Shown piece after piece: positions 3,045 through 21,388 of a stretch of 33,646 bases of DNA. The position numbers were made by a program, and so were the translations under genes. Origin of the DNA: Oscillospiraceae bacterium (GTDB taxonomy: Bacteria; Bacillota; Clostridia; Oscillospirales; CAG-272); NCBI GenBank assembly GCA_015065045.1, contig SVRB01000003.1, positions 1-33,646 of the forward strand, written 5' to 3'. Below the pieces are notes generated by a model that was not told where the DNA came from, did not search any database, and saw nothing but the letters and a program-made list of their open reading frames with translations. How positions within the stretch are numbered: the first letter of the stretch is position 1; every line of letters starts with the position of its first letter.

Positions 3045-3632
3045 CTAATAATATCTCTCCCTCCGTCTTTTGCTCCACAAAAGCCACCGTCTCGTTGCGA
3101 CTCGGTCACGGTTCGCTACCTCGCCAGATGGAGGTAAAAACCAGATTTGCGTAAAACGGGACGTCGTGGGCGCCGTCCCCCACAAATACCAATATTATCT
3201 CATAAAACAATAAATCTTCCGCAGACCACGGAGGGTTCCGAGGGAGGAAAGACCTCGGTCGTTTTAAGGGTAGGGTTCAAAGGGAGGGGAAATCGAAATC
3301 CCCTCCCTTGTGCCTTCTTTGGTTACTTTCTTGGCACGCAAGAAAGTAACGTAAAAAAGAAAAGATAATATTATTTCGCAAAATAATACGTCTTTGCCCT
3401 CTCAGTCAGCTTTGCTGACAGCGTCTCGTTGCGACTCGGTCACGGTTCGGCTCTGACATCACACCGTGATGTCATTCACTCCCTCACCGCCGCTTCGCTA
3501 CCCGAGGGGAGAGCCTAAAAGGCACAGAATGTCAGGAGCTTCGCTCCCGAACCCACACAAGAGGCGCACTTTTGAAAAAGTGCCCTCTTGACTCCCTCAA
3601 AACTTTTAATAGATTTTGCGAACTTTGCAAAA
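3021..3632. repeat. Composite palindromic intergenic repeat cluster, copy A
   Basis: Colinear with 31726-32110. Exact shared blocks: 35 nt at 3299-3333 = 31868-31902 and 28 nt at 3531-3558 = 32011-32038. Internal 28-nt repeat 3088-3115 = 3422-3449. Many hairpins. Confidence 0.92.
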
Positions 3633-3636
3633 AAAC

Positions 3637-3661
3637 AAACGGGTGAAAAATTCACCCGTTT
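3637..3661. terminator. Intrinsic terminator of the ylxM-ffh-rpsP-khpA operon (potentially bidirectional)
   Basis: AAACGGGTGAA-aaa-TTCACCCGTTT directly after the khpA stop, with a T-run on the minus strand. Confidence 0.8.
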
Positions 3662-3665
3662 ATCT

Positions 3666-3902
3666 TCATCTTATTTCGACTGTAACTTTTTTGTTGTCTG
3701 CGTTTGCCGCAGCCTTCATAACAGTACGGATCGCCTTTGCAATTCTGCCGTTTCTTCCGATAACCTTACCCATATCCTGAGATGCAACGCTGAGTGTCAA
3801 TACAACACTGTTTCCGTTTTCGCTCTCAATAACGGTAACCATATCAGGTTCGTCAACGATTGCCTTAGCAATATCCGTGAGAATCTGTTTCAAATTCAAC
3901 AT
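3666..3902 (-). CDS. khpA: KH-domain RNA-binding protein KhpA (YlqC)
   Basis: 78 aa, DMGKVIGRNGRIAKAIR KH motif, canonical position downstream of rpsP. Confidence 0.93.
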   Translation of the reverse strand: MLNLKQILTDIAKAIVDEPDMVTVIESENGNSVVLTLSVASQDMGKVIGRNGRIAKAIRTVMKAAANADNKKVTVEIR

Positions 3903-3918
3903 GTTTTCTTACCGCAGA

Positions 3919-4161
3919 TTATTCTGTAATGCCGGATTTCTTAAGAAGTGCTCTTACAGTCTCTGTGGGCTGAGCGCCGTTACCAAGCCACTTTGTAGCC
4001 TTTTCTGCATCGATCTTGATTTCTGCAGGGTTTGTCAAGGGATTGTAGTAACCAATCTCTTCAATGAATCTACCGTTACGGGGAGATCTTGAATCTGCAA
4101 CTACTACACGATAGAAGGGTTTCTTCTTTGCGCCAACTCTCTTAAGTCTGATTTTAACCAT
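3919..4161 (-). CDS. rpsP: 30S ribosomal protein S16
   Basis: [41 protein letters not shown]. Confidence 0.99.
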
Positions 4162-4193
4162 TTTTGTATTCCTCCAAAAATTTTATATAAATT

Positions 4194-5576
4194 TTATTTT
4201 TTCTTTTTCTTATTTTTCTTAAGCTTTTTCTTTGTGAATCTGTTGCCAAAACCACCGAGTCCTCCGAGTCCGGGGATTCCCTTACCCTGAGAAATCTGTT
4301 TCATAAGCTTATTTGTCTGTTCAAACTGCTTAAGCAATCTGTTTACGTCTTCAACAGTCGTACCGCTTCCTGCCGCAATTCTCTTTCTTCTTGACGCTGA
4401 AATGATATCAGGATTTTCCCTTTCTTTCACTGTCATAGAACGAATTATCGCTTCCATACGGTCAATCTGTTTTTCGTCGAGCTTCGCATCCTTGAGGTCA
4501 AGCCCCTTCACACCGGGCATCATACCGAGCAGCTGCTCCATAGATCCCATACCTCTTATCTGCTGGAACTGTTCGAGATAATCGGTAAGTGTAAACTTTG
4601 ACTCGCGAAGCTTCTGTTCAAGCTCTGCCGCCTTTTTCTCGTCGTATGCCTGCTCTGCCTTTTCAATAAGCGAAAGCATATCGCCCATACCGAGAATACG
4701 TGAAGCCATTCTGTCAGGATGGAAAGGTTCGATAGCATCAAGCTTTTCACCCGTACCAACATACTTAATAGGCTTACCCGTAATATATCTTACAGAAAGA
4801 ACAGCACCACCTCTGGTATCGCCGTCCATCTTTGTAACAACAACGCCGGTTATATCAAGAAGATCATTGAACGACTGCGCAACGTTTACCGCATCCTGAC
4901 CTGTCATAGCATCAACTACGAGCAGAATTTCTGTCGGCTCAACCTTGCTCTTTATGTTCTTGAGCTCTTCCATCATATCCTCGTCAATGTGCAGTCTACC
5001 TGCAGTATCGACGAATACCATATCGTAACCGTTTTTCTTCGCGTGCTCAACACCCGCCTTGGCAATTTCAACCGGGCTTATCTTGTCACCCATCGTAAAC
5101 ACGGGAACGCCAATCTGTCCGCCTACAACCTCAAGCTGCTTTATAGCCGCCGGTCTGTAAACGTCGCAGGCAACAAGCAAAGGTCTTTTTCCCTGCTTCT
5201 TAAAATGCGACGCAAGCTTTGCCGCGTGAGTAGTCTTACCTGCGCCCTGAAGACCTGTCATCATAATAACGGTCGGGGGCTTCGGTGATATCGTTATCTT
5301 TGCCTGAGAACCGCCCATAAGATCAATAAGCTCTTCGTTTACTATCTTAACGATCTGCTGTGCGGGAACAAGGCTTTCAAGAACCTGAGTTCCAACGGCT
5401 CTCTCGGTTACTTTATTTATAAAATCTTTAACAACCTTAAAGTTTACGTCAGCTTCAAGCAACGCAAGCTTGATCTCGCGCATACCTGACTTAACGTCGC
5501 TTTCGGTAAGCTTACCCTTACTCCTAAAGCTTTTGAATGCTGAAGATAATTTATCTGTAAGGCTTTGAAAACTCAT
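4194..5576 (-). CDS. ffh: Signal recognition particle protein Ffh
   Basis: GLQGAGKTT, DTAGR and TKMDGDTRGG GTPase motifs; M domain with SRRKRIAAGSG. Confidence 0.99.
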   Translation of the reverse strand: MSFQSLTDKLSSAFKSFRSKGKLTESDVKSGMREIKLALLEADVNFKVVKDFINKVTERAVGTQVLESLVPAQQIVKIVNEELIDLMGGSQAKITISPKPPTVIMMTGLQGAGKTTHAAKLASHFKKQGKRPLLVACDVYRPAAIKQLEVVGGQIGVPVFTMGDKISPVEIAKAGVEHAKKNGYDMVFVDTAGRLHIDEDMMEELKNIKSKVEPTEILLVVDAMTGQDAVNVAQSFNDLLDITGVVVTKMDGDTRGGAVLSVRYITGKPIKYVGTGEKLDAIEPFHPDRMASRILGMGDMLSLIEKAEQAYDEKKAAELEQKLRESKFTLTDYLEQFQQIRGMGSMEQLLGMMPGVKGLDLKDAKLDEKQIDRMEAIIRSMTVKERENPDIISASRRKRIAAGSGTTVEDVNRLLKQFEQTNKLMKQISQGKGIPGLGGLGGFGNRFTKKKLKKNKKKKK

Positions 5577-14556: not shown

Positions 14557-14802
14557 ATGAAAGAAAAAATCACTTTGGTCGTATCAGGTGTAAAAATAAC
14601 CGTATTAACAGAAAATGATCCCGAATACGTAATGAGTCTCGGCAGATTGCTCGAAAAACGCGTAAGCGATCTTGTTATCTCATCAACGTCTTGCTCAAAG
14701 AGTGAAGCTCTGTTGCTTTGCGCTTTGGACTATCTTGACGAAAGAAACAAGCTCTTAAAAGAAAACGAAGAACTTAAAGAACAGTTGAAAAATCTTAAGT
14801 AA
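14557..14802 (+). CDS. zapA: Cell division protein ZapA family
   Basis: 81 aa, N-terminal beta hairpin (KITLVVSGVKITV), DPEYV, LLCALDYLDE and C-terminal coiled coil; AAGGAG RBS. Confidence 0.75.
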   Translation: MKEKITLVVSGVKITVLTENDPEYVMSLGRLLEKRVSDLVISSTSCSKSEALLLCALDYLDERNKLLKENEELKEQLKNLK

Positions 14803-14816
14803 AGGATTTTAAAATT

Positions 14817-15074
14817 ATGATGAAGTTTATTAAATACACAGGCTTCCCCGTTTTGTGCGGAATAGTTCTCGGCATGATGGTAGCATCATTGACAAAAAAC
14901 GTTTCTGCATTATCATGGCTCTCATTCGGCTTGAATTTCGGTATGACCTCTCCGCTCGTACTCGACCTTAAGCTGATAAATTTTACTTTCGGTCTTACCG
15001 TAAGTCTGAACGTTGCAACAATAATATGTATTACACTTTGCCTTATTACTGCAAAATACATATACAAGAGATAA
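14817..15074 (+). CDS. DUF4321 small membrane protein
   Basis: LSWLSFGLNFG..PLVLDLKLINFTFG pattern; usual position upstream of maf in Clostridia. Confidence 0.75.
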   Translation: MMKFIKYTGFPVLCGIVLGMMVASLTKNVSALSWLSFGLNFGMTSPLVLDLKLINFTFGLTVSLNVATIICITLCLITAKYIYKR

Positions 15075-15078
15075 TTTT

Positions 15079-15663
15079 ATGAAAATTTTATTGGCATCAA
15101 AGTCTCCCCGCAGACGAAAAATGTTAAAAGAGCTTGGTATAAAATACACGCTTTGGAACGGCGAGGCAGACGAAACCGTTACAAAAGAATATAAGCCCCA
15201 TTCGCTTGTAAAGCTACTTGCAAAAAGAAAGGCTATGGCGGCATATAAAGACGTAAAAAGAAACGATTCTCTTATTATATCCGCAGACACCGTCGTTGCA
15301 TTAAACGGCAAGATACTCGGCAAGCCTAAGGATGATGACGATGCAAGAAATATGCTTCGCAGTATGAGCGGCACTCACCATTCGGTTTATTCGGGCGTTG
15401 CCGCTATATATAACGGCAGACTTGTATCTGATTATCAAAAAACAGATATAAAATTCCGTGATATTGATGACAAAGAAATCGAAAGATATCTTAAGACCGG
15501 TGAGCATAAAGATAAAGCAGGCTCATACGGGATACAGGAAAAGGGCGGATATTTCGTTGAAAAGGTAAACGGAGATATAAACAACGTTGTGGGGCTCCCC
15601 GTTTTGAAGCTTCGAAATATGATTTTAAAAGAGTTTGATATTGATATTTTTAATTTAGATTAA
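15079..15663 (+). CDS. maf: Maf-family nucleoside triphosphate pyrophosphatase (YhdE-type)
   Basis: LASKSPRR, ISADTVV, ILGKP, DKAGSYGIQ, NVVGLP. Confidence 0.96.
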   Translation: MKILLASKSPRRRKMLKELGIKYTLWNGEADETVTKEYKPHSLVKLLAKRKAMAAYKDVKRNDSLIISADTVVALNGKILGKPKDDDDARNMLRSMSGTHHSVYSGVAAIYNGRLVSDYQKTDIKFRDIDDKEIERYLKTGEHKDKAGSYGIQEKGGYFVEKVNGDINNVVGLPVLKLRNMILKEFDIDIFNLD

Positions 15664-15683
15664 AAGCTTGAAGAGGTGTTAAA

Positions 15684-16682
15684 GTGGCAAGAACGATAGG
15701 AATCGATTTGGGTACTGCCAACACGTATGTATACAGAAAAGGCAGAGGGATCGTTATAAGAGAGCCCTCTGTAATCGCAATAGACGAAGAAAAATGTAAA
15801 GTGGTAGCTTTAGGTGAGGATGCTTACGAAATGATAGGCAAAGAGCCTACAAACGTAAAGGCTACACGCCCCATTAAAGACGGCGTTATTGCAGAATTTG
15901 ATATAACCGTAGCTATGCTTCACGGATTTATCGTTAAGGCATCGGGAAAAGGAAGTCTCAACCGACCGAACGTTGTATTAACGGTTTCCGAAAGCATCAC
16001 AGAGGTTGAAAAAAGAGCGCTTGAGGAAGCGGCTGCCGAAGCAGGAGCAAGAAGTGTCGCAACTATAAAAGCATCATTTGCGGCAGCGCTCGGAGCGGGA
16101 TTGCCCATCGAAGAACCAAGAGGCAGTATGATCGTAAACATCGGCGGCGGAACGACCGACGTTGCCGTTATGAGTCTTGGTGGCATAATCGAATCCGACT
16201 CTGTAAGGGTTGGAGGAGATAAGATTGACGACGCTATTTTATCTTACTTAAAGAGAAAATATAATTTGATAATCAGCTCTATAGATGCTGAAGAATTAAA
16301 AAGAAGCATCGGCACACTCTCTCCTTCGGCTGAAGAAAAATATGCCGAGGTGTACGGCAGAGATGCTGTAAGCGGACTCCCTCTTACCATAAAAGTAAAA
16401 AATACCGAGCTTATTGACCCTATAAAAGAACAGATTTCACACATTGTTGACTGTATAAAATCAACCTTAGAAAAGCTTCACCCCGAATTATCCTCCGATA
16501 TTCACGACTATGGAATGACACTTTCGGGCGGAGGAGCGCTTTTAGATGGAATCGAAGAATACTTTACAAAGCTTTTTGGCTTTGAAGTCAGAGTTGCCGA
16601 AAACGCAACCGACTGCTGTGTTGAAGGAATACAGAAGGTAATTGATCTCTTCCCTCAGTTTATTTCATTCAATAACCGATAA
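15684..16682 (+). CDS. mreB: Rod shape-determining protein MreB, divergent active site
   Basis: IDLGTANT, EPSV, RPIKDGVI, GGGTT and LSGGGAL actin-fold motifs; first gene of mreBCD; GTG start with GAGGTG RBS. Confidence 0.92.
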   Translation: MARTIGIDLGTANTYVYRKGRGIVIREPSVIAIDEEKCKVVALGEDAYEMIGKEPTNVKATRPIKDGVIAEFDITVAMLHGFIVKASGKGSLNRPNVVLTVSESITEVEKRALEEAAAEAGARSVATIKASFAAALGAGLPIEEPRGSMIVNIGGGTTDVAVMSLGGIIESDSVRVGGDKIDDAILSYLKRKYNLIISSIDAEELKRSIGTLSPSAEEKYAEVYGRDAVSGLPLTIKVKNTELIDPIKEQISHIVDCIKSTLEKLHPELSSDIHDYGMTLSGGGALLDGIEEYFTKLFGFEVRVAENATDCCVEGIQKVIDLFPQFISFNNR

Positions 16683-16703: not shown

Positions 16704-17543
16704 TTGAAAAATCTGTTTCAAAACAAATTTATGATAGTGCTTATAGTTATTTCGATAATTTTGGTAGGTACTACGTCTTTCATATCAGCCTTAGGCTACA
16801 CATCCTATGTAAGAAATGCCATAGGTATTGTTTTGACGCCTATACAAAAGGGGGCGGATTTTGTTTTTGACAGCTTTGAAAATATTTTTGCCGATAAAGC
16901 AGACTACAAAAAGCTCAAAGAAGAAAATGAAAACTTAAAGCTTCTTCTTTCCGAAAAGGAAAAAGAGCTTGCCGACGCTCAAAACACCGTAAAAGAAAAT
17001 GAAAATTTAAAGGACTTCCTCGGTTTAAAGGAAGAGCATCCCGATTTTGTTCTTGCCGATGCTAAAGTTACCGGAAGACAGACGAATAATTACTCTATCG
17101 TTTATACCTTGGATAAGGGCTCATACCACGGCATAACACCGGGAATGCCCATAATAGACAAGTTTGGTATTGTCGGTTGCATCAGCGAGGTTGGTCTTAC
17201 TTGGTCAAAAGCAACCTCAATTATAAATACTGACGTTTCTGTCGGAGTGATGATACAAAGAACGGGTGAAACAGGTGTTTCAAGCGGAAGCTTTTCCGCA
17301 TTCAAAGATGGACTTTGCGTTGTTTCATATTTGCCGAACGATACCGACGTGCAAGTAGGCGACAGAATAGTTACCTCTGCAAACAGCTCGCTTTACCCTA
17401 AAGACATTCTTCTTGGAAAAGTCGAATCAATAAAGCACGACCCTGTTTCAAGAGAAATTCTTGTATACGTAAAGCCTGCCGCAAATATCACGGAGGTCAG
17501 CTCGGTAATGATAATTACCGATTATAGTATAGCATATGAATAA
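16704..17543 (+). CDS. mreC: Rod shape-determining protein MreC
   Basis: N-terminal TM, coiled coil (ENENLK), LDKGS..GI..GMP, GDRIVTS...LYPKDILLG. Confidence 0.93.
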   Translation: MKNLFQNKFMIVLIVISIILVGTTSFISALGYTSYVRNAIGIVLTPIQKGADFVFDSFENIFADKADYKKLKEENENLKLLLSEKEKELADAQNTVKENENLKDFLGLKEEHPDFVLADAKVTGRQTNNYSIVYTLDKGSYHGITPGMPIIDKFGIVGCISEVGLTWSKATSIINTDVSVGVMIQRTGETGVSSGSFSAFKDGLCVVSYLPNDTDVQVGDRIVTSANSSLYPKDILLGKVESIKHDPVSREILVYVKPAANITEVSSVMIITDYSIAYE

Positions 17544-18081
17544 GCATTTCAATATTGCCGTTATTTTTGATATTGTAATATACGGATTGCTTTTGATTGT
17601 GCTGTCCGTTTTACAGACAACCTTAATTCCCCGTTTTCCGATATACGACGCTATTCCCGATATAATGATCGGCGCTGTATGCTGTATCGGTGTTTACAGA
17701 GGAGAGAGATGCGCCGCAATTTTTGGTCTTATGGCGGGTCTTTGTTCTGATGCGCTCGGAAGCACGGGATTATCATTATTGCCGCTTTTTTACACCCTCG
17801 TTGGTTATATTGCGGGTAATATTGGCGCAAACGCAAGAGAAAAGGCTCGCTTTGCGGCATATCTTATCACTATCCCTGCCGTTTGTTTTGCAAAAACGGC
17901 ATTATCTTTTTTTCACCATATCATAATATATTTTGATTCGATCAAGCTGGGTGATTACTTTTTGCATACTTTTTTACCCGAATTTGTTTATACGCTTTGC
18001 TTGTGTATACCGATCTTTATACTCGTAAAGCTGTTTGATATTCCATTAAACACACTCAGAAAGAGAGGCGGTTATCGTTGA
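17536..18081 (+). CDS. mreD: Rod shape-determining protein MreD
   Basis: 181 aa membrane protein (LQTT...PD...FGLMAGLCSD), overlapping mreC and the pbp gene. Confidence 0.85.
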   Translation: MNKHFNIAVIFDIVIYGLLLIVLSVLQTTLIPRFPIYDAIPDIMIGAVCCIGVYRGERCAAIFGLMAGLCSDALGSTGLSLLPLFYTLVGYIAGNIGANAREKARFAAYLITIPAVCFAKTALSFFHHIIIYFDSIKLGDYFLHTFLPEFVYTLCLCIPIFILVKLFDIPLNTLRKRGGYR

Positions 18082-20171
18082 GAAAAAACAGCAGATATCA
18101 TTTCAGATATATATTACCGACCCTTCTCTTTGTGTTGGTCTGCATATGCTTTGCAGCAAGAATAATATACTTGCAAATAAATGCACCCGAGCTTCAAACA
18201 TCATCCGAGCTTACGGTAAGAACTGTAGCCGTTAAAGCTGTAAGGGGTGAAATATATGACCGTAACGGCATCAAGCTTGTAGCAAACAGCTATTCGTATA
18301 ACGTGATGCTTGACGCTAACACCTTCCCTAAAAGCAACAGCGAAAAAAATCAGACATTATCTACACTTATCGATATTTTAGGCAATACTCCCGACACGCA
18401 GTTTCCCGTAATAAACGGATATAAAGAAGCTGAATATAAGGATTTTGATACAAACAGCTCCGAATATAACGGATTTATGAAAATGCTCGACAAATTCAAG
18501 TTACCGAGAAACACCTCGTGTGAAGATCTTGTCAGCTTTTTATTAAAGAGATATGAGCTTGTTGACAAAAACGGAAAGCTTAGCGTAAACGAAGAAATGC
18601 TTATGTCTGTAATGGCTGTCAGATATGAATGCGAAAGACTTAGCTTCAATTCTCTTAGTCCCGTTACTATCGAAAAGAATATTTCTATGGCAACATTGAC
18701 AGCCGTCGAAGAAGCATCTCTTGACGGAGTTAAAATAAGCAAATCTGTAGACAGAGTTTATAATTATCCCAAGTACGCCGCGCATATTATCGGCAGAACG
18801 GGTAAAATTCAAGCCGCAGACCTCGAATACTATACCGAAAAAGGATACCCGATGGACGCTATCGTGGGCATTGACGGTATCGAAAAGGCTTATGAAGAAT
18901 ATTTAAGAGGAATCGACGGAACTCTTGTAATTGTAGAAGATAAGAATAAAAACATCGTTGACGAATACTACAAAAAACAGCCCGTTGCAGGAAACGACGT
19001 TTATCTTACTATCGATATAAATATGCAGATCGTCGCAGAGGACGCTCTTGATTATAATATAAAGTATATCAAAGAAAAAGCTGACGCGACTATTAAAGAA
19101 GAAACCGAAAAGTATACTGATGCAAACGGCAATATTATAGACGCATCCAAAATCCCCCAGTATATAGGCGAGGACGTAACCTCGGGCGCTGTTACTCTTG
19201 TCAATCCGAATACGGGAGAAATATACGCTATGGCTTCAAATCCGACGTATAATCTTTCTACCTATCTTCAGGACTACAGCAGTCTCCTTACAGCAGACAA
19301 CAATCCCCTCTTTAACCGAGCGCTTATGGGAACCTACGAACCGGGCTCGACGTTTAAGATTGGTGTTGCAGCAGCCGCGCTTGAATACGGCGTTATAAAC
19401 AGATATACAACAATGTATGACAGCGGTGTTTATAAATATTATCCCGACTTTCAGCCCGAATGTTGGGTGTATAAATCTCACGGATACGGACACGGAACCG
19501 TAAACGTTATATCCGCAATTCAGCATTCTTGTAACTACTTCTTCTATGAAACAGGAAGACTTTTGACTATCGAAAGAATGAACGAATTTTGCAAGAAGCT
19601 TGGACTTGGCGAAAGCACGGGCATTGAGCTTCCCGAATCAAACGGAATCCTTGCAGGACCTGCATATTCATCGTCAATCAACAAACAATGGATGCCCGGT
19701 GATACGGTACAGTCAGCAATAGGTCAGTCTGATAATACCTTCTCCCCCTTGCAGATCTCGATGTACTTGTCCACAATGATAAACGGCGGAAACAGATACA
19801 GAGCTCATTTGCTTCACTCCGTTCGTGAGTTTGGCACAAATAAAATTATATACGAAGAGCAGCCTGAAACTTTAAATACAGTTGAATTATCAGCTGAAAC
19901 GGTTAATACTATAAAGACCGGTATGAAGAGCGTTATGGAAAACGGTACTGCAGCACCCGTATTCTCCGACTACCCGATAGAAATCGGAGGAAAAACAGGT
20001 ACAGCGCAGGTTGGTTCCAAAAAAAGTAATAACGGTATATTTATGGCATTTGCCCCTTATGATAACCCCGAAATCGTTGCATCTTGTATAATTGAGCAAG
20101 CGGGCGGCAGTAACGACTGTGGTCTGACGATCAGAAAAATGTTTAACTACCACTTCAATATAATTGAATAA
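18078..20171 (+). CDS. mrdA: Class B penicillin-binding protein (PBP2/MrdA-like)
   Basis: RGEIYDRNG, GIDGIEK pedestal motifs; STFK, SCN and KTG catalytic motifs; follows mreD. Confidence 0.9.
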   Translation: MRKNSRYHFRYILPTLLFVLVCICFAARIIYLQINAPELQTSSELTVRTVAVKAVRGEIYDRNGIKLVANSYSYNVMLDANTFPKSNSEKNQTLSTLIDILGNTPDTQFPVINGYKEAEYKDFDTNSSEYNGFMKMLDKFKLPRNTSCEDLVSFLLKRYELVDKNGKLSVNEEMLMSVMAVRYECERLSFNSLSPVTIEKNISMATLTAVEEASLDGVKISKSVDRVYNYPKYAAHIIGRTGKIQAADLEYYTEKGYPMDAIVGIDGIEKAYEEYLRGIDGTLVIVEDKNKNIVDEYYKKQPVAGNDVYLTIDINMQIVAEDALDYNIKYIKEKADATIKEETEKYTDANGNIIDASKIPQYIGEDVTSGAVTLVNPNTGEIYAMASNPTYNLSTYLQDYSSLLTADNNPLFNRALMGTYEPGSTFKIGVAAAALEYGVINRYTTMYDSGVYKYYPDFQPECWVYKSHGYGHGTVNVISAIQHSCNYFFYETGRLLTIERMNEFCKKLGLGESTGIELPESNGILAGPAYSSSINKQWMPGDTVQSAIGQSDNTFSPLQISMYLSTMINGGNRYRAHLLHSVREFGTNKIIYEEQPETLNTVELSAETVNTIKTGMKSVMENGTAAPVFSDYPIEIGGKTGTAQVGSKKSNNGIFMAFAPYDNPEIVASCIIEQAGGSNDCGLTIRKMFNYHFNIIE

Positions 20172-20185
20172 AAGGATTTAGCTTT

Positions 20186-21388
20186 ATGAAAAGATTATTT
20201 ATTTCGATAATTTTAATATGTATTGTTCTCATAACGGCATCCTGTTCGGGAAAATTACCCGAAACAAACGAATACAAGTGTGAATTTGACACAAAGAACA
20301 AAACCGTATCTATAGTCGGTTACGAAGGCAGCTCGGAGAAAATTGTAATTCCCGAAAAGTTTGGAAAATATACAGTTACCGAGATTGGCCGAAACGCATT
20401 TTCAAAGAACTACGAGCTTTCGAAAATTACAATCCCCGAGACTGTAACATCTATCGGCGACAGAGCCTTTGAATTATGTATAGGCTTAAAAGAAATCGAG
20501 CTTCCGCCCGAGCTTAAAAGTATAGGCAATGCGGCATTTTCTAATTGCCGTTCTTTGAGAAAAATATCAATCCCCGAGGCTGTCGAAAAAATAGGTCTCA
20601 GCGTGTTTACGGGTTGCACTTCACTTGAAAAAATTGAAGTTGACGAAAACAACTCCAACTACGTTTCAGACAGATACGGAGCTTTGCTCGACAAAAACCA
20701 AACTACAGTTATCCAATACCCCACCGGAAGCCAACGCACTAAATACGAGATGCCGAATACTGTTACAACTATAGAGAGCTACGCATTTGAAAAATCAAAG
20801 AACCTTGAAGAAGTTACTTTTTCAGAAAACTTAAAAACAATAAAAAGCTATGCTTTTCAAGCCTCTGGAATACGCAGCGCTGAATTTTCCGACAGGCTCG
20901 AACAAATAGGCAACTTTGCATTTAACGAATCAAAGCTTTCATCAATTACACTTGGTAATTCAGTAAAGAGCATCGGCGACTCAGCTTTCGCTTGGTGCAC
21001 GTCGCTTACGGAAATCGAAATACCCTCAACGACCGACGTTATCGGTGTTTCGGCATTCTTTATGTGTACTTCAATCGAAAAATATACCATAGGTAAAGAA
21101 AATAAGAAATTTGCTTCCGATGATTACGGAGTGCTGTTCAATAAGGATAAATCGATATTGCTATACTACCCCGTCGGCAGCGCGACAGAGGAATACACTG
21201 TACCAAGTACAGTTAAGACGATTTCAGCAAGCTCATTTTCGACTTGCTTGAATATTAAAAAGATTATAATCCCTGACTCCGTTGAAGAAATAAACGACCT
21301 TGCTTTTTCTCAGTGTCCAAACCTTGCCGACGTAATATACGAAGGCACAAAGCCTGAAAGCATCGCTGAAAACGCATTTGAAAAATAA
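20186..21388 (+). CDS. BspA-like leucine-rich-repeat (LRR_5) lipoprotein
   Basis: Signal peptide ending ITASC (lipobox); repeated IPxxVxxIGxxAFxxCxxL units; two GxLxxKxxxxLxxYP inserts. Confidence 0.88.
   Translation: MKRLFISIILICIVLITASCSGKLPETNEYKCEFDTKNKTVSIVGYEGSSEKIVIPEKFGKYTVTEIGRNAFSKNYELSKITIPETVTSIGDRAFELCIGLKEIELPPELKSIGNAAFSNCRSLRKISIPEAVEKIGLSVFTGCTSLEKIEVDENNSNYVSDRYGALLDKNQTTVIQYPTGSQRTKYEMPNTVTTIESYAFEKSKNLEEVTFSENLKTIKSYAFQASGIRSAEFSDRLEQIGNFAFNESKLSSITLGNSVKSIGDSAFAWCTSLTEIEIPSTTDVIGVSAFFMCTSIEKYTIGKENKKFASDDYGVLFNKDKSILLYYPVGSATEEYTVPSTVKTISASSFSTCLNIKKIIIPDSVEEINDLAFSQCPNLADVIYEGTKPESIAENAFEK

Follow-up and report, generated by a model that had tools for sequence, protein, structure and literature searches.

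The stretch of DNA analysed here (the window; 33,646 nucleotides of contig SVRB01000003.1 from an Oscillospiraceae bacterium of the GTDB lineage Oscillospirales; CAG-272) is ordinary chromosomal DNA with housekeeping genes and 40% G+C, and it belongs to an assembly of 1.40 Mb in 137 contigs that is 80% complete. Between positions 14557 and 20171 of its plus strand, on which all window features given below are located, it encodes zapA, a DUF4321 membrane protein, maf, mreB, mreC, mreD and a class-B penicillin-binding protein (PBP). The MreB encoded in this operon, which we take to be the elongasome MreB of its genus (uncultured Clostridia from animal guts), carries alanine at the position of the catalytic glutamate and asparagine at the position of the phosphate-2 aspartate. 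We consider it probable that this variant is a selected, functional MreB which binds nucleotide and probably polymerises, but has given up efficient ATP hydrolysis.

The conserved block opens with zapA (14557..14802, 81 amino acids (aa), Pfam ZapA 2.1e-09), which lies upstream in 12 of 12 loci of the genus, and continues with the gene for the small DUF4321 membrane protein (14817..15074, 85 aa, Pfam PF14209 2.6e-14) and with maf (15079..15663, 194 aa, Pfam Maf 1.2e-57), located immediately 5' of mreB here and preceding it in all 12 genus loci. A Shine-Dalgarno-like AGAGG (15672..15676), as read from the sequence, stands 7 nucleotides (nt) 5' of the GTG start of mreB (15684..16682, 332 aa, no internal stops), and this start is supported by orthologues beginning with M-A-R-I/T-I at the equivalent position. 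Downstream follow mreC (16704..17543, 279 aa, Pfam MreC 1.5e-36), found 3' of mreB in 12 of 12 genus loci, then mreD (17536..18081, 181 aa; Pfam MreD 9.7e-4, below the gathering score), also kept in all 12, and pbp2 (18078..20171, 697 aa, Pfam PBP_dimer and Transpeptidase), in whose translation the motifs SxxK, SxN and KTG can be read as STFK, SCN and KTGT. The gene order zapA-DUF4321-maf-mreB-mreC-mreD was kept in each of the 12 loci.

The variant MreB matched Pfam MreB_Mbl (PF06723) with 400.9 bits (cut-off 27) over profile positions 2-320 of 327, and a phmmer search against all PDB chains matched it to the MreB of Geobacillus stearothermophilus (Gs; 7zpt) with an E-value of 2.1e-88. Residues 103-204 paired without gaps with residues 109-210 of the Gs protein, which places A130 (codon GCA, 16071..16073) at the catalytic glutamate, E136 in Gs and in Bacillus subtilis (Bs), and N152 (codon AAC, 16137..16139) at the phosphate-2 aspartate, D158 in both. 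An alignment with Caulobacter (Cc) MreB, which reads I-D-E-P and VDIGGGTT, gave the same equivalence with Cc E140 as the catalytic residue. Around A130 the codons are those of I128 (from nt 16065), K129 (AAA, 16068-70) and S131 (TCA, 16074-76). A first-pass annotation of the window, made from the sequence alone, had reported the loss of both acidic residues with exactly these coordinates (I128 at 16065, N152 at 16137-16139), in a full-length reading frame with intact DLGTANT, GGGTT and GGGAL motifs and beside intact mreC, mreD and pbp2 genes, and all of this was borne out.

Together with its closest relatives the variant forms a clade of 28 protein clusters with 68-100% identity, drawn from a 5.8-billion-protein collection. 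An AlphaFold2 model built on the 28 clade sequences reached a predicted local distance difference test score of 88.3 and a predicted template modelling (TM) score of 0.85. Foldseek aligned this model to solved MreBs with TM-scores of 0.92-0.94 and a root-mean-square deviation of 1.7-1.8 Å to Thermotoga maritima MreB (1jce/1jcf); the best 25 matches were all MreB or Mbl, and the highest was, by its entry title, a Mbl-MreB integrative model. Alignment and structure model bear out the match to E136 and D158 that the first-pass annotation had assumed.

The substitutions are fixed well beyond the window genome. Sequencing or assembly error was ruled out by three independent runs, by the orthologues of the genus and by the related protein clusters. 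Contigs from three DNA runs of three studies (animal gut or faeces) span mreB and carry codons 129-131 and 152 unchanged. No RNA data set was listed as carrying the sequence, and one run labelled RNA-Seq, probably DNA, spans short pieces of the window only. All 11 other genomes of the genus encode an orthologue with 75-92% identity at the same locus, and the catalytic Glu is absent from each of the 12 genus sequences (Ala in 3, Ser in 9), with Asn in 11 and His in one at the phosphate-2 Asp position. The Glu is kept in none of the 28 clade clusters; at the Asp position 26 of them carry N, one carries H and one D. The 91 nearest canonical MreB clusters, in contrast, show Glu in 91 and Asp in 86. 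In the 27 clade sequences compared by position, residue 130 is only A or S and residue 152 is N (25), H (1) or D (1). This restriction to A or S and almost only to N indicates constraint rather than drift.

Two groups of relatives show only part of these changes. The protein P0030 (335 aa, 57% identity to the window MreB) lacks the Glu (VVDSAV) and the Pro (SVTGS) and still has the phosphate-2 Asp and, in the membrane loop, a Phe-Phe pair; this intermediate state hints that the Glu loss came first in the order of changes. Conversely, P0041, P0050, P0077, P0085 and P0097 as well as two MreBs from family genomes (L025 in G015, L075 in G075) have canonical EEP and VPSG motifs, yet Asn in place of the phosphate-2 Asp. 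Since Asn occurs naturally in otherwise canonical MreBs, the phosphate-2 Asp is less indispensable than the Glu.

Outside these two positions the nucleotide-binding elements are retained. The phosphate-1 loop D8-L-G-T-A-N-T14 (15705..15725) is intact, with G10, T11, N13 and T14 invariant and D8 nearly invariant among the 28 clade sequences. The stretch I153-G-G-G-T-T-D159 (16140..16160) holds the phosphate-2 glycines (G154-G156, invariant together with T157) and a retained Thr-x-Asp pair, and the adenosine motif G282-G-G-A-L286 (16527..16541) is intact with G282 and G283 invariant, as are E203 and K206. Among non-Spiroplasma MreBs, 95.8% conserve the catalytic motif E...T-x-[D/E] and 4.2% lack it, the latter apparently not being followed up in that study (PMC9597168). 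Of this motif, T157 and D159 are present in the variant, and the Glu is Ala130. Equivalents of Gs G14, G56, V114, G160 and G231 are invariant in the clade and that of L171 nearly so. Mutation of G14 or G160 abolishes ATP binding in GsMreB, and G56, V114, L171 and G231 are protofilament contacts that polymerisation needs (bioRxiv 10.64898/2026.07.23.740262). Mapped onto the variant, these contacts are G52 (= G56), V108 and G225, all invariant in the clade, and L165, nearly invariant.

At 31 positions where conservation among the 91 canonical relatives is 80% or higher, the clade is also fixed for a different residue; the exchanges include K48Y, T54E (GRTP loop), R96N, P102S, G104S, D152N, T201D, P266H and V312C. 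The canonical GRTP/GKTP loop of subdomain IB reads G52-K-E-P55 (15837..15848), with position 54 being E in 25 of 27 clade sequences versus T in 91 of 91 canonical relatives. T100-V-S-E-S104 (15981..15995) replaces xVPSG, and here P102 is changed to S in 25 of 27 clade sequences while all 91 canonical sequences have P. The alpha2-beta7 loop, a membrane-insertion loop in the MreBs of T. maritima and Geobacillus (PMC10718530), is G88-K-G-S-L-N-R-P95 (15945..15968) in the variant. The clade reads GKGSL-NRP where canonical relatives and the paralogue described below have VF, FF, FW or IF pairs, leaving the variant, which has no N-terminal extension, with a single hydrophobic residue in this loop versus two in relatives. 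Acidic residues gained clade-wide are E54 in the IB loop and D201 at the start of a IIB helix, neither of which presumably lies near the gamma-phosphate. The first-pass annotation had listed GKEP (52-55), TVSES (100-104) and AENAT (305-309) as altered spots; all three are present, but AENAT is limited to the window species and its closest relative and the clade consensus is AENPL.

In comparison with the canonical MreBs of Firmicutes (G. stearothermophilus 7ZPT/8AZG; B. subtilis) the variant is alike in length and fold, with 46-47% identity and an E-value of 2e-88. It shares with them maf on the 5' side and the mreC/mreD partners, and it keeps the phosphate-1, phosphate-2 glycine and adenosine motifs and the polymerisation-critical residues. 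The variant clade differs from them by Glu136 to Ala/Ser, Asp158 to Asn, Pro to Ser in VPSG, GKEP for GRTP and a less hydrophobic alpha2-beta7 loop.

A canonical mbl/mreB gene elsewhere in the genome, which the first-pass annotation had supposed, was found. On a separate contig (C104) the window genome encodes a second MreB of 343 aa with canonical LVEEPL, IIDIGGGTT and VPSG motifs; a third match in the genome proved to be DnaK and was discarded as a third MreB. All 12 genomes of the genus hold exactly the variant MreB and one canonical paralogue with EEP and the phosphate-2 Asp; four of these genomes carry both genes on a single contig, at a distance of about 21 kb. Maximum-likelihood analysis put the variant clade (support 100/100) with the operon-linked MreBs of the family, on a stem of 1.2 substitutions per site, and the paralogue clade (100/100) fell into a separate Mbl-like group. 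The operon-linked family MreBs that include the variant clade form a 16-row set supported at 100/99, which does not contain the paralogue clade. B. subtilis MreB paralogues are reported to co-polymerise (PMC7641798). For the variant, co-polymerisation with the canonical paralogue or a split of tasks between the two is a speculative suggestion, and the scaffold or co-polymer adaptor put forward by the first-pass annotation is a candidate role.

Two MreB paralogues in every genome might also mean that the variant acts in a second elongasome, specialised for sporulation or in another way, and that the paralogue runs vegetative elongation. The first-pass annotation had proposed such a sporulation-specific elongasome, and the presence of Spo0A in 5 of 5 genomes surveyed (that of the window with 80% completeness, plus four with 97-99%) would fit it. 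However, each of these five genomes encodes only two SEDS proteins, and only two class-B PBPs were present in each of the four near-complete ones; in the window's own genome the operon PBP2 was the only one seen. One SEDS/class-B PBP pair lies about 6 kb apart in a division-cluster-like arrangement, and the operon PBP2 is the sole other class-B PBP. Hence no synthases are left over for a separate elongasome used in sporulation only, and furthermore no mreC, mreD or pbp gene is adjacent to the canonical paralogue. We therefore regard a second elongasome as very unlikely, and the proposal is disfavoured. The RodZ_C Pfam model gave no match in the five genomes, a weak negative since the model matches only 5 of 14 reference genomes.

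From the family of the window genome we sampled one genome per genus with at least 90% completeness (70 genera). Maf precedes MreB in 36 loci of this sample. In 19 of the 70 genera there was no MreB_Mbl match better than DnaK, which indicates that the Rod system was lost many times in the family. MreB lies beside maf and/or mreC/mreD/pbp2 in 38 genera, and the catalytic Glu is kept in 21 of these and lost in 17. Among MreBs with an adjacent mreC the loss is restricted to 5 of 25, namely the window genus, G044 (Gln), G045 (Ser), G081 (Ala and Asn) and G176 (Ser), and it reaches 12 of 13 among those without; unlinked copies keep the Glu in 33 of 45 cases. On an 85-row MreB tree with the trait columns masked, the state of the Glu changed at least 9 times, with 6 changes forced by well-supported branches, a rough count given that the tree came from a quick search and has long branches. 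Outside the family, the best MreB in each of 11 genomes of the same order kept both Glu and Asp.

With the clade profile we screened 1.84 billion cluster representatives and scored the 149 alignable top representatives, of which only one 50% cluster represents the variant clade itself. The Glu was absent from 46 (Gln in 13), the Asp from 27 and both from 15, the clade's own included; this sample over-counts divergent singletons, as canonical MreBs collapse into few clusters. The recurrence in the family and the many divergent Glu-less clusters lower the uniqueness of the variant, which appears as one of several recurrent Glu-less cases in its family. The best representatives outside the clade were the long proteins P0122 (1010 aa), P0123 (486 aa) and P0124 (497 aa). 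They have a terminal MreB domain or a pair of MreB stretches, their catalytic sites are degenerate (VEQT/VAIGGD, VEQP/VDVGGA), and fusion or a wrong gene call may explain them.

Several Glu-less MreBs of the family stand in altered operons. In at least three genera (genomes G015, G100 and G101) the order is maf, Glu-less MreB, an Rce1-like membrane protein and pbp2. The Rce1-like protein (CAAX protease family, PF02517; 370-390 aa; L046 in G015, 1795-2907 on the minus strand; L110 in G100, 3609-4730 on the plus strand; L111 in G101, 1432-2601 on the minus strand) takes the place of mreC/mreD, and this gene order looks like a remodelled elongasome operon. G083 and G063 have a Glu-less MreB beside pbp2 with no mreC, and the neighbouring frames tested there matched no family. 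All five genomes encode MreC at another locus. Five further genomes (G013, G046, G072, G078 and G098; loci L053, L122, L120, L119 and L124) each have a single, strongly degenerate MreB-like gene adjacent to maf, and no MreC was found in them at 91-98% completeness. This gene is followed by DNA-glycosylase genes (endonuclease III/OGG) in four of the five genera, and its glycine loops read for example DIGAANA, SIGASVT and NIGSGLT, whereas the loops of the window genus are intact. We take these degenerate maf-linked proteins to be relics or repurposed actin-like proteins without a Rod complex. In one additional genome a divergent MreB-like gene (G097:C16:3202-4140; L121) contains an in-frame TAG; pseudogenisation or a sequencing error could explain it.

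Such lineages raise the question of whether the variant gene is itself on its way out, its catalytic losses being an early step under relaxed constraint on the Rod system towards the degenerate or absent MreBs of sister genera. Besides the genera without an MreB match, the 17 Glu-less linked MreBs and the five genera with a degenerate MreB and no MreC, the long stem of the clade and a dN (nonsynonymous rate) twice that of the paralogue could be read in this direction. To the contrary, the gene is under strong purifying selection. We calculated ratios of nonsynonymous to synonymous rates (dN/dS) by the Nei-Gojobori method for the 12 genus genomes, with finite dS in 56 of 66 pairs; many distant pairs were saturated, hence the close pairs carry most weight. 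The median dN/dS of the variant was 0.074, with 0.033-0.063 in the five closest pairs (dS below or near saturation), compared to 0.039 for the paralogue, 0.149 for MreC, 0.154 for MreD, 0.095 for Maf and 0.078 for ZapA. The variant is thus more constrained than its neighbours MreC, MreD and Maf, and 14 of the 15 population differences in mreB across the three DNA runs are synonymous. The substituted state has been stable across a genus with saturated synonymous sites and in 28 clusters that reach down to 68% identity, nucleotide loops and polymer contacts stayed invariant, and MreC, MreD and PBP2 are intact at 12 of 12 loci. A gene in the course of being lost is accordingly an improbable explanation. 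A pseudogene was ruled out by the open frame in 12 of 12 genomes and the low dN/dS. The first-pass annotation had pointed to same-locus orthologues, dN/dS below 1 and independent reads as the places where its claim could fail; the Glu loss in all 12 orthologues, the dN/dS values and the unchanged codons in the three runs all went in its favour, and neutral decay is contradicted.

What the two substitutions would mean for the protein can be estimated from mutants at the same positions, E136A and D158A in GsMreB and BsMreB and E134A and D156A in Spiroplasma citri MreB5 (ScMreB5), which are the best available proxies. In GsMreB, E136A lowered the ATPase activity 55-fold (about 2% left), and the mutant bound ATP with the highest thermal stabilisation among the mutants, polymerised like the wild type and disassembled more slowly at limiting ATP; D158A lowered activity 3-fold and kept binding and polymerisation (bioRxiv 10.64898/2026.07.23.740262). 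The corresponding B. subtilis mutants E136A and D158A showed minor shape defects only (bioRxiv 10.64898/2026.07.23.740262). In ScMreB5 the observed rate constant of 0.15 per min fell to 0.01 in E134A and 0.08 in D156A (PMC9195046). The MreB3 of Spiroplasma eriocheiris (SpeMreB3), which naturally lacks the motif, released inorganic phosphate (Pi) unmeasurably slowly and formed filaments (PMC9597168). Based on these data we read the variant as an ATP-binding, hydrolysis-poor and polymerising MreB, and low ATPase activity, nucleotide binding, polymerisation and stable filaments are inferred for it by analogy. The laboratory mutants are single, whereas the variant is naturally changed at both sites, has Asn instead of Ala at the Asp position and has been fixed for long; it also carries many further substitutions that may compensate or add functions.

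In mechanistic terms, the catalytic Glu, whose role is to position the attacking water, is replaced by Ala in the window protein and by Ala or Ser clade-wide, the phosphate-2 Asp is replaced by Asn, and the Pro of the neighbouring VPSG loop by Ser. By analogy to E136A and D158A, the outcome would be an ATP-bound protein in long-lived filaments with slow turnover. These filaments would serve MreC, MreD and PBP2 as well as a RodA encoded elsewhere, with a hydrolysis-competent Mbl-type paralogue alongside in every genome of the genus. The motion of MreB is driven by wall synthesis and not by treadmilling, and long-lived filaments are consistent with this.

Alternatively, the variant could still be a competent ATPase, in which T157-x-D159, Ser or Ala at position 130 and Asn152 support hydrolysis through a rearranged water network, so that the rate would be tuned and not abolished. 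Actin has Gln at the position of the catalytic Glu, as do the 13 Gln-bearing representatives mentioned above, and T157 is invariant in the clade and D159 retained. In addition, SpeMreB3 K174T/S176D, in which the Thr-x-Asp pair is restored with no Glu present, regains near-normal Pi release (PMC9597168), the loss in D158A is only 3-fold (bioRxiv 10.64898/2026.07.23.740262) and Asn is natural in canonical MreBs. Nevertheless, the exchange of Glu for Ala cost GsMreB 55-fold and ScMreB5 15-fold in activity despite an intact Thr-x-Asp/Glu (bioRxiv 10.64898/2026.07.23.740262; PMC9195046), the VPSG Pro and the phosphate-2 Asp are changed as well, and Ala or Ser cannot act as a base. Full ATPase competence is thus unlikely, and the nucleotide-binding, hydrolysis-poor MreB proposed by the first-pass annotation is supported by the mutant data. 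Its wording as a pseudo-ATPase is too strong, given the retained T157 and D159 and the 1/55 of activity left in E136A.

Several observations weigh against the hydrolysis-poor, polymerising MreB that we favour. Residual or alternative catalysis is possible, considering the Thr-x-Asp residues kept in the variant, the effect of restoring this pair in SpeMreB3 and the residual activity of E136A, and a further side chain might reach the gamma-phosphate. The change from Asp to Asn may cost little, as it occurs alone in otherwise canonical MreBs (5 of the 91 nearest clusters, 10 of the 149 representatives). The 31 changed positions include the IB loop at the longitudinal interface and could alter the geometry of the polymer, and membrane targeting may differ, judging from the less hydrophobic loop and the missing RodZ_C matches in the five genomes. 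The family moreover shows the full range of Rod-system erosion, so that a slow route to loss is conceivable.

As a natural Glu-less and filament-forming MreB beside hydrolysis-competent paralogues, Spiroplasma MreB3 (7E1C/7E1G) is a precedent for the variant (PMC9597168), as the first-pass annotation had noted. The two nevertheless differ in substitutions, origin and cell-wall context. MreB3 has Glu to Asp, Thr to Lys and Asp/Glu to Ser/Thr, whereas the variant has Glu to Ala/Ser, keeps the Thr and Asp and has lost the phosphate-2 Asp in addition. The variant matched MreB3 (7e1c) with 3.7e-54 and 33% identity, versus 2e-88 for Geobacillus MreB; given this low similarity, below that to canonical MreBs, the loss of the Glu in the variant is independent. 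Finally, the host of MreB3 is a wall-less swimmer without mreC, mreD and PBP2, while the variant is encoded in an mreBCD-pbp2 operon.

The role of ATP hydrolysis in MreB polymer dynamics is debated, and laboratory hydrolysis mutants are mild according to the MreB papers cited. The only natural example studied previously is the MreB3 of wall-less Spiroplasma, and we found no description in the literature of a Glu-less, operon-linked MreB in walled Firmicutes. Encoded in an intact mreBCD-pbp2 operon, the variant offers a natural, long-lived and strongly selected test case among walled bacteria, and the whole family with its recurrent Glu loss provides further material on the role of the MreB ATPase. 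Hydrolysis by the elongasome MreB might be naturally dispensable and have been shed repeatedly in the family, with the window genus using a static ATP-bound scaffold on MreC/MreD/PBP2 beside a hydrolysing paralogue in a stable subfunctionalisation; we put this forward as a conjecture that is somewhat less probable than not. The annotation 'rod shape-determining protein MreB' should be used with caution, as it spans catalytically very different proteins.

Directly 3' of pbp2 the window further encodes a lipoprotein-like BspA-type leucine-rich-repeat protein of 400 aa (20186-21388, plus strand; LRR_5, 3e-70).

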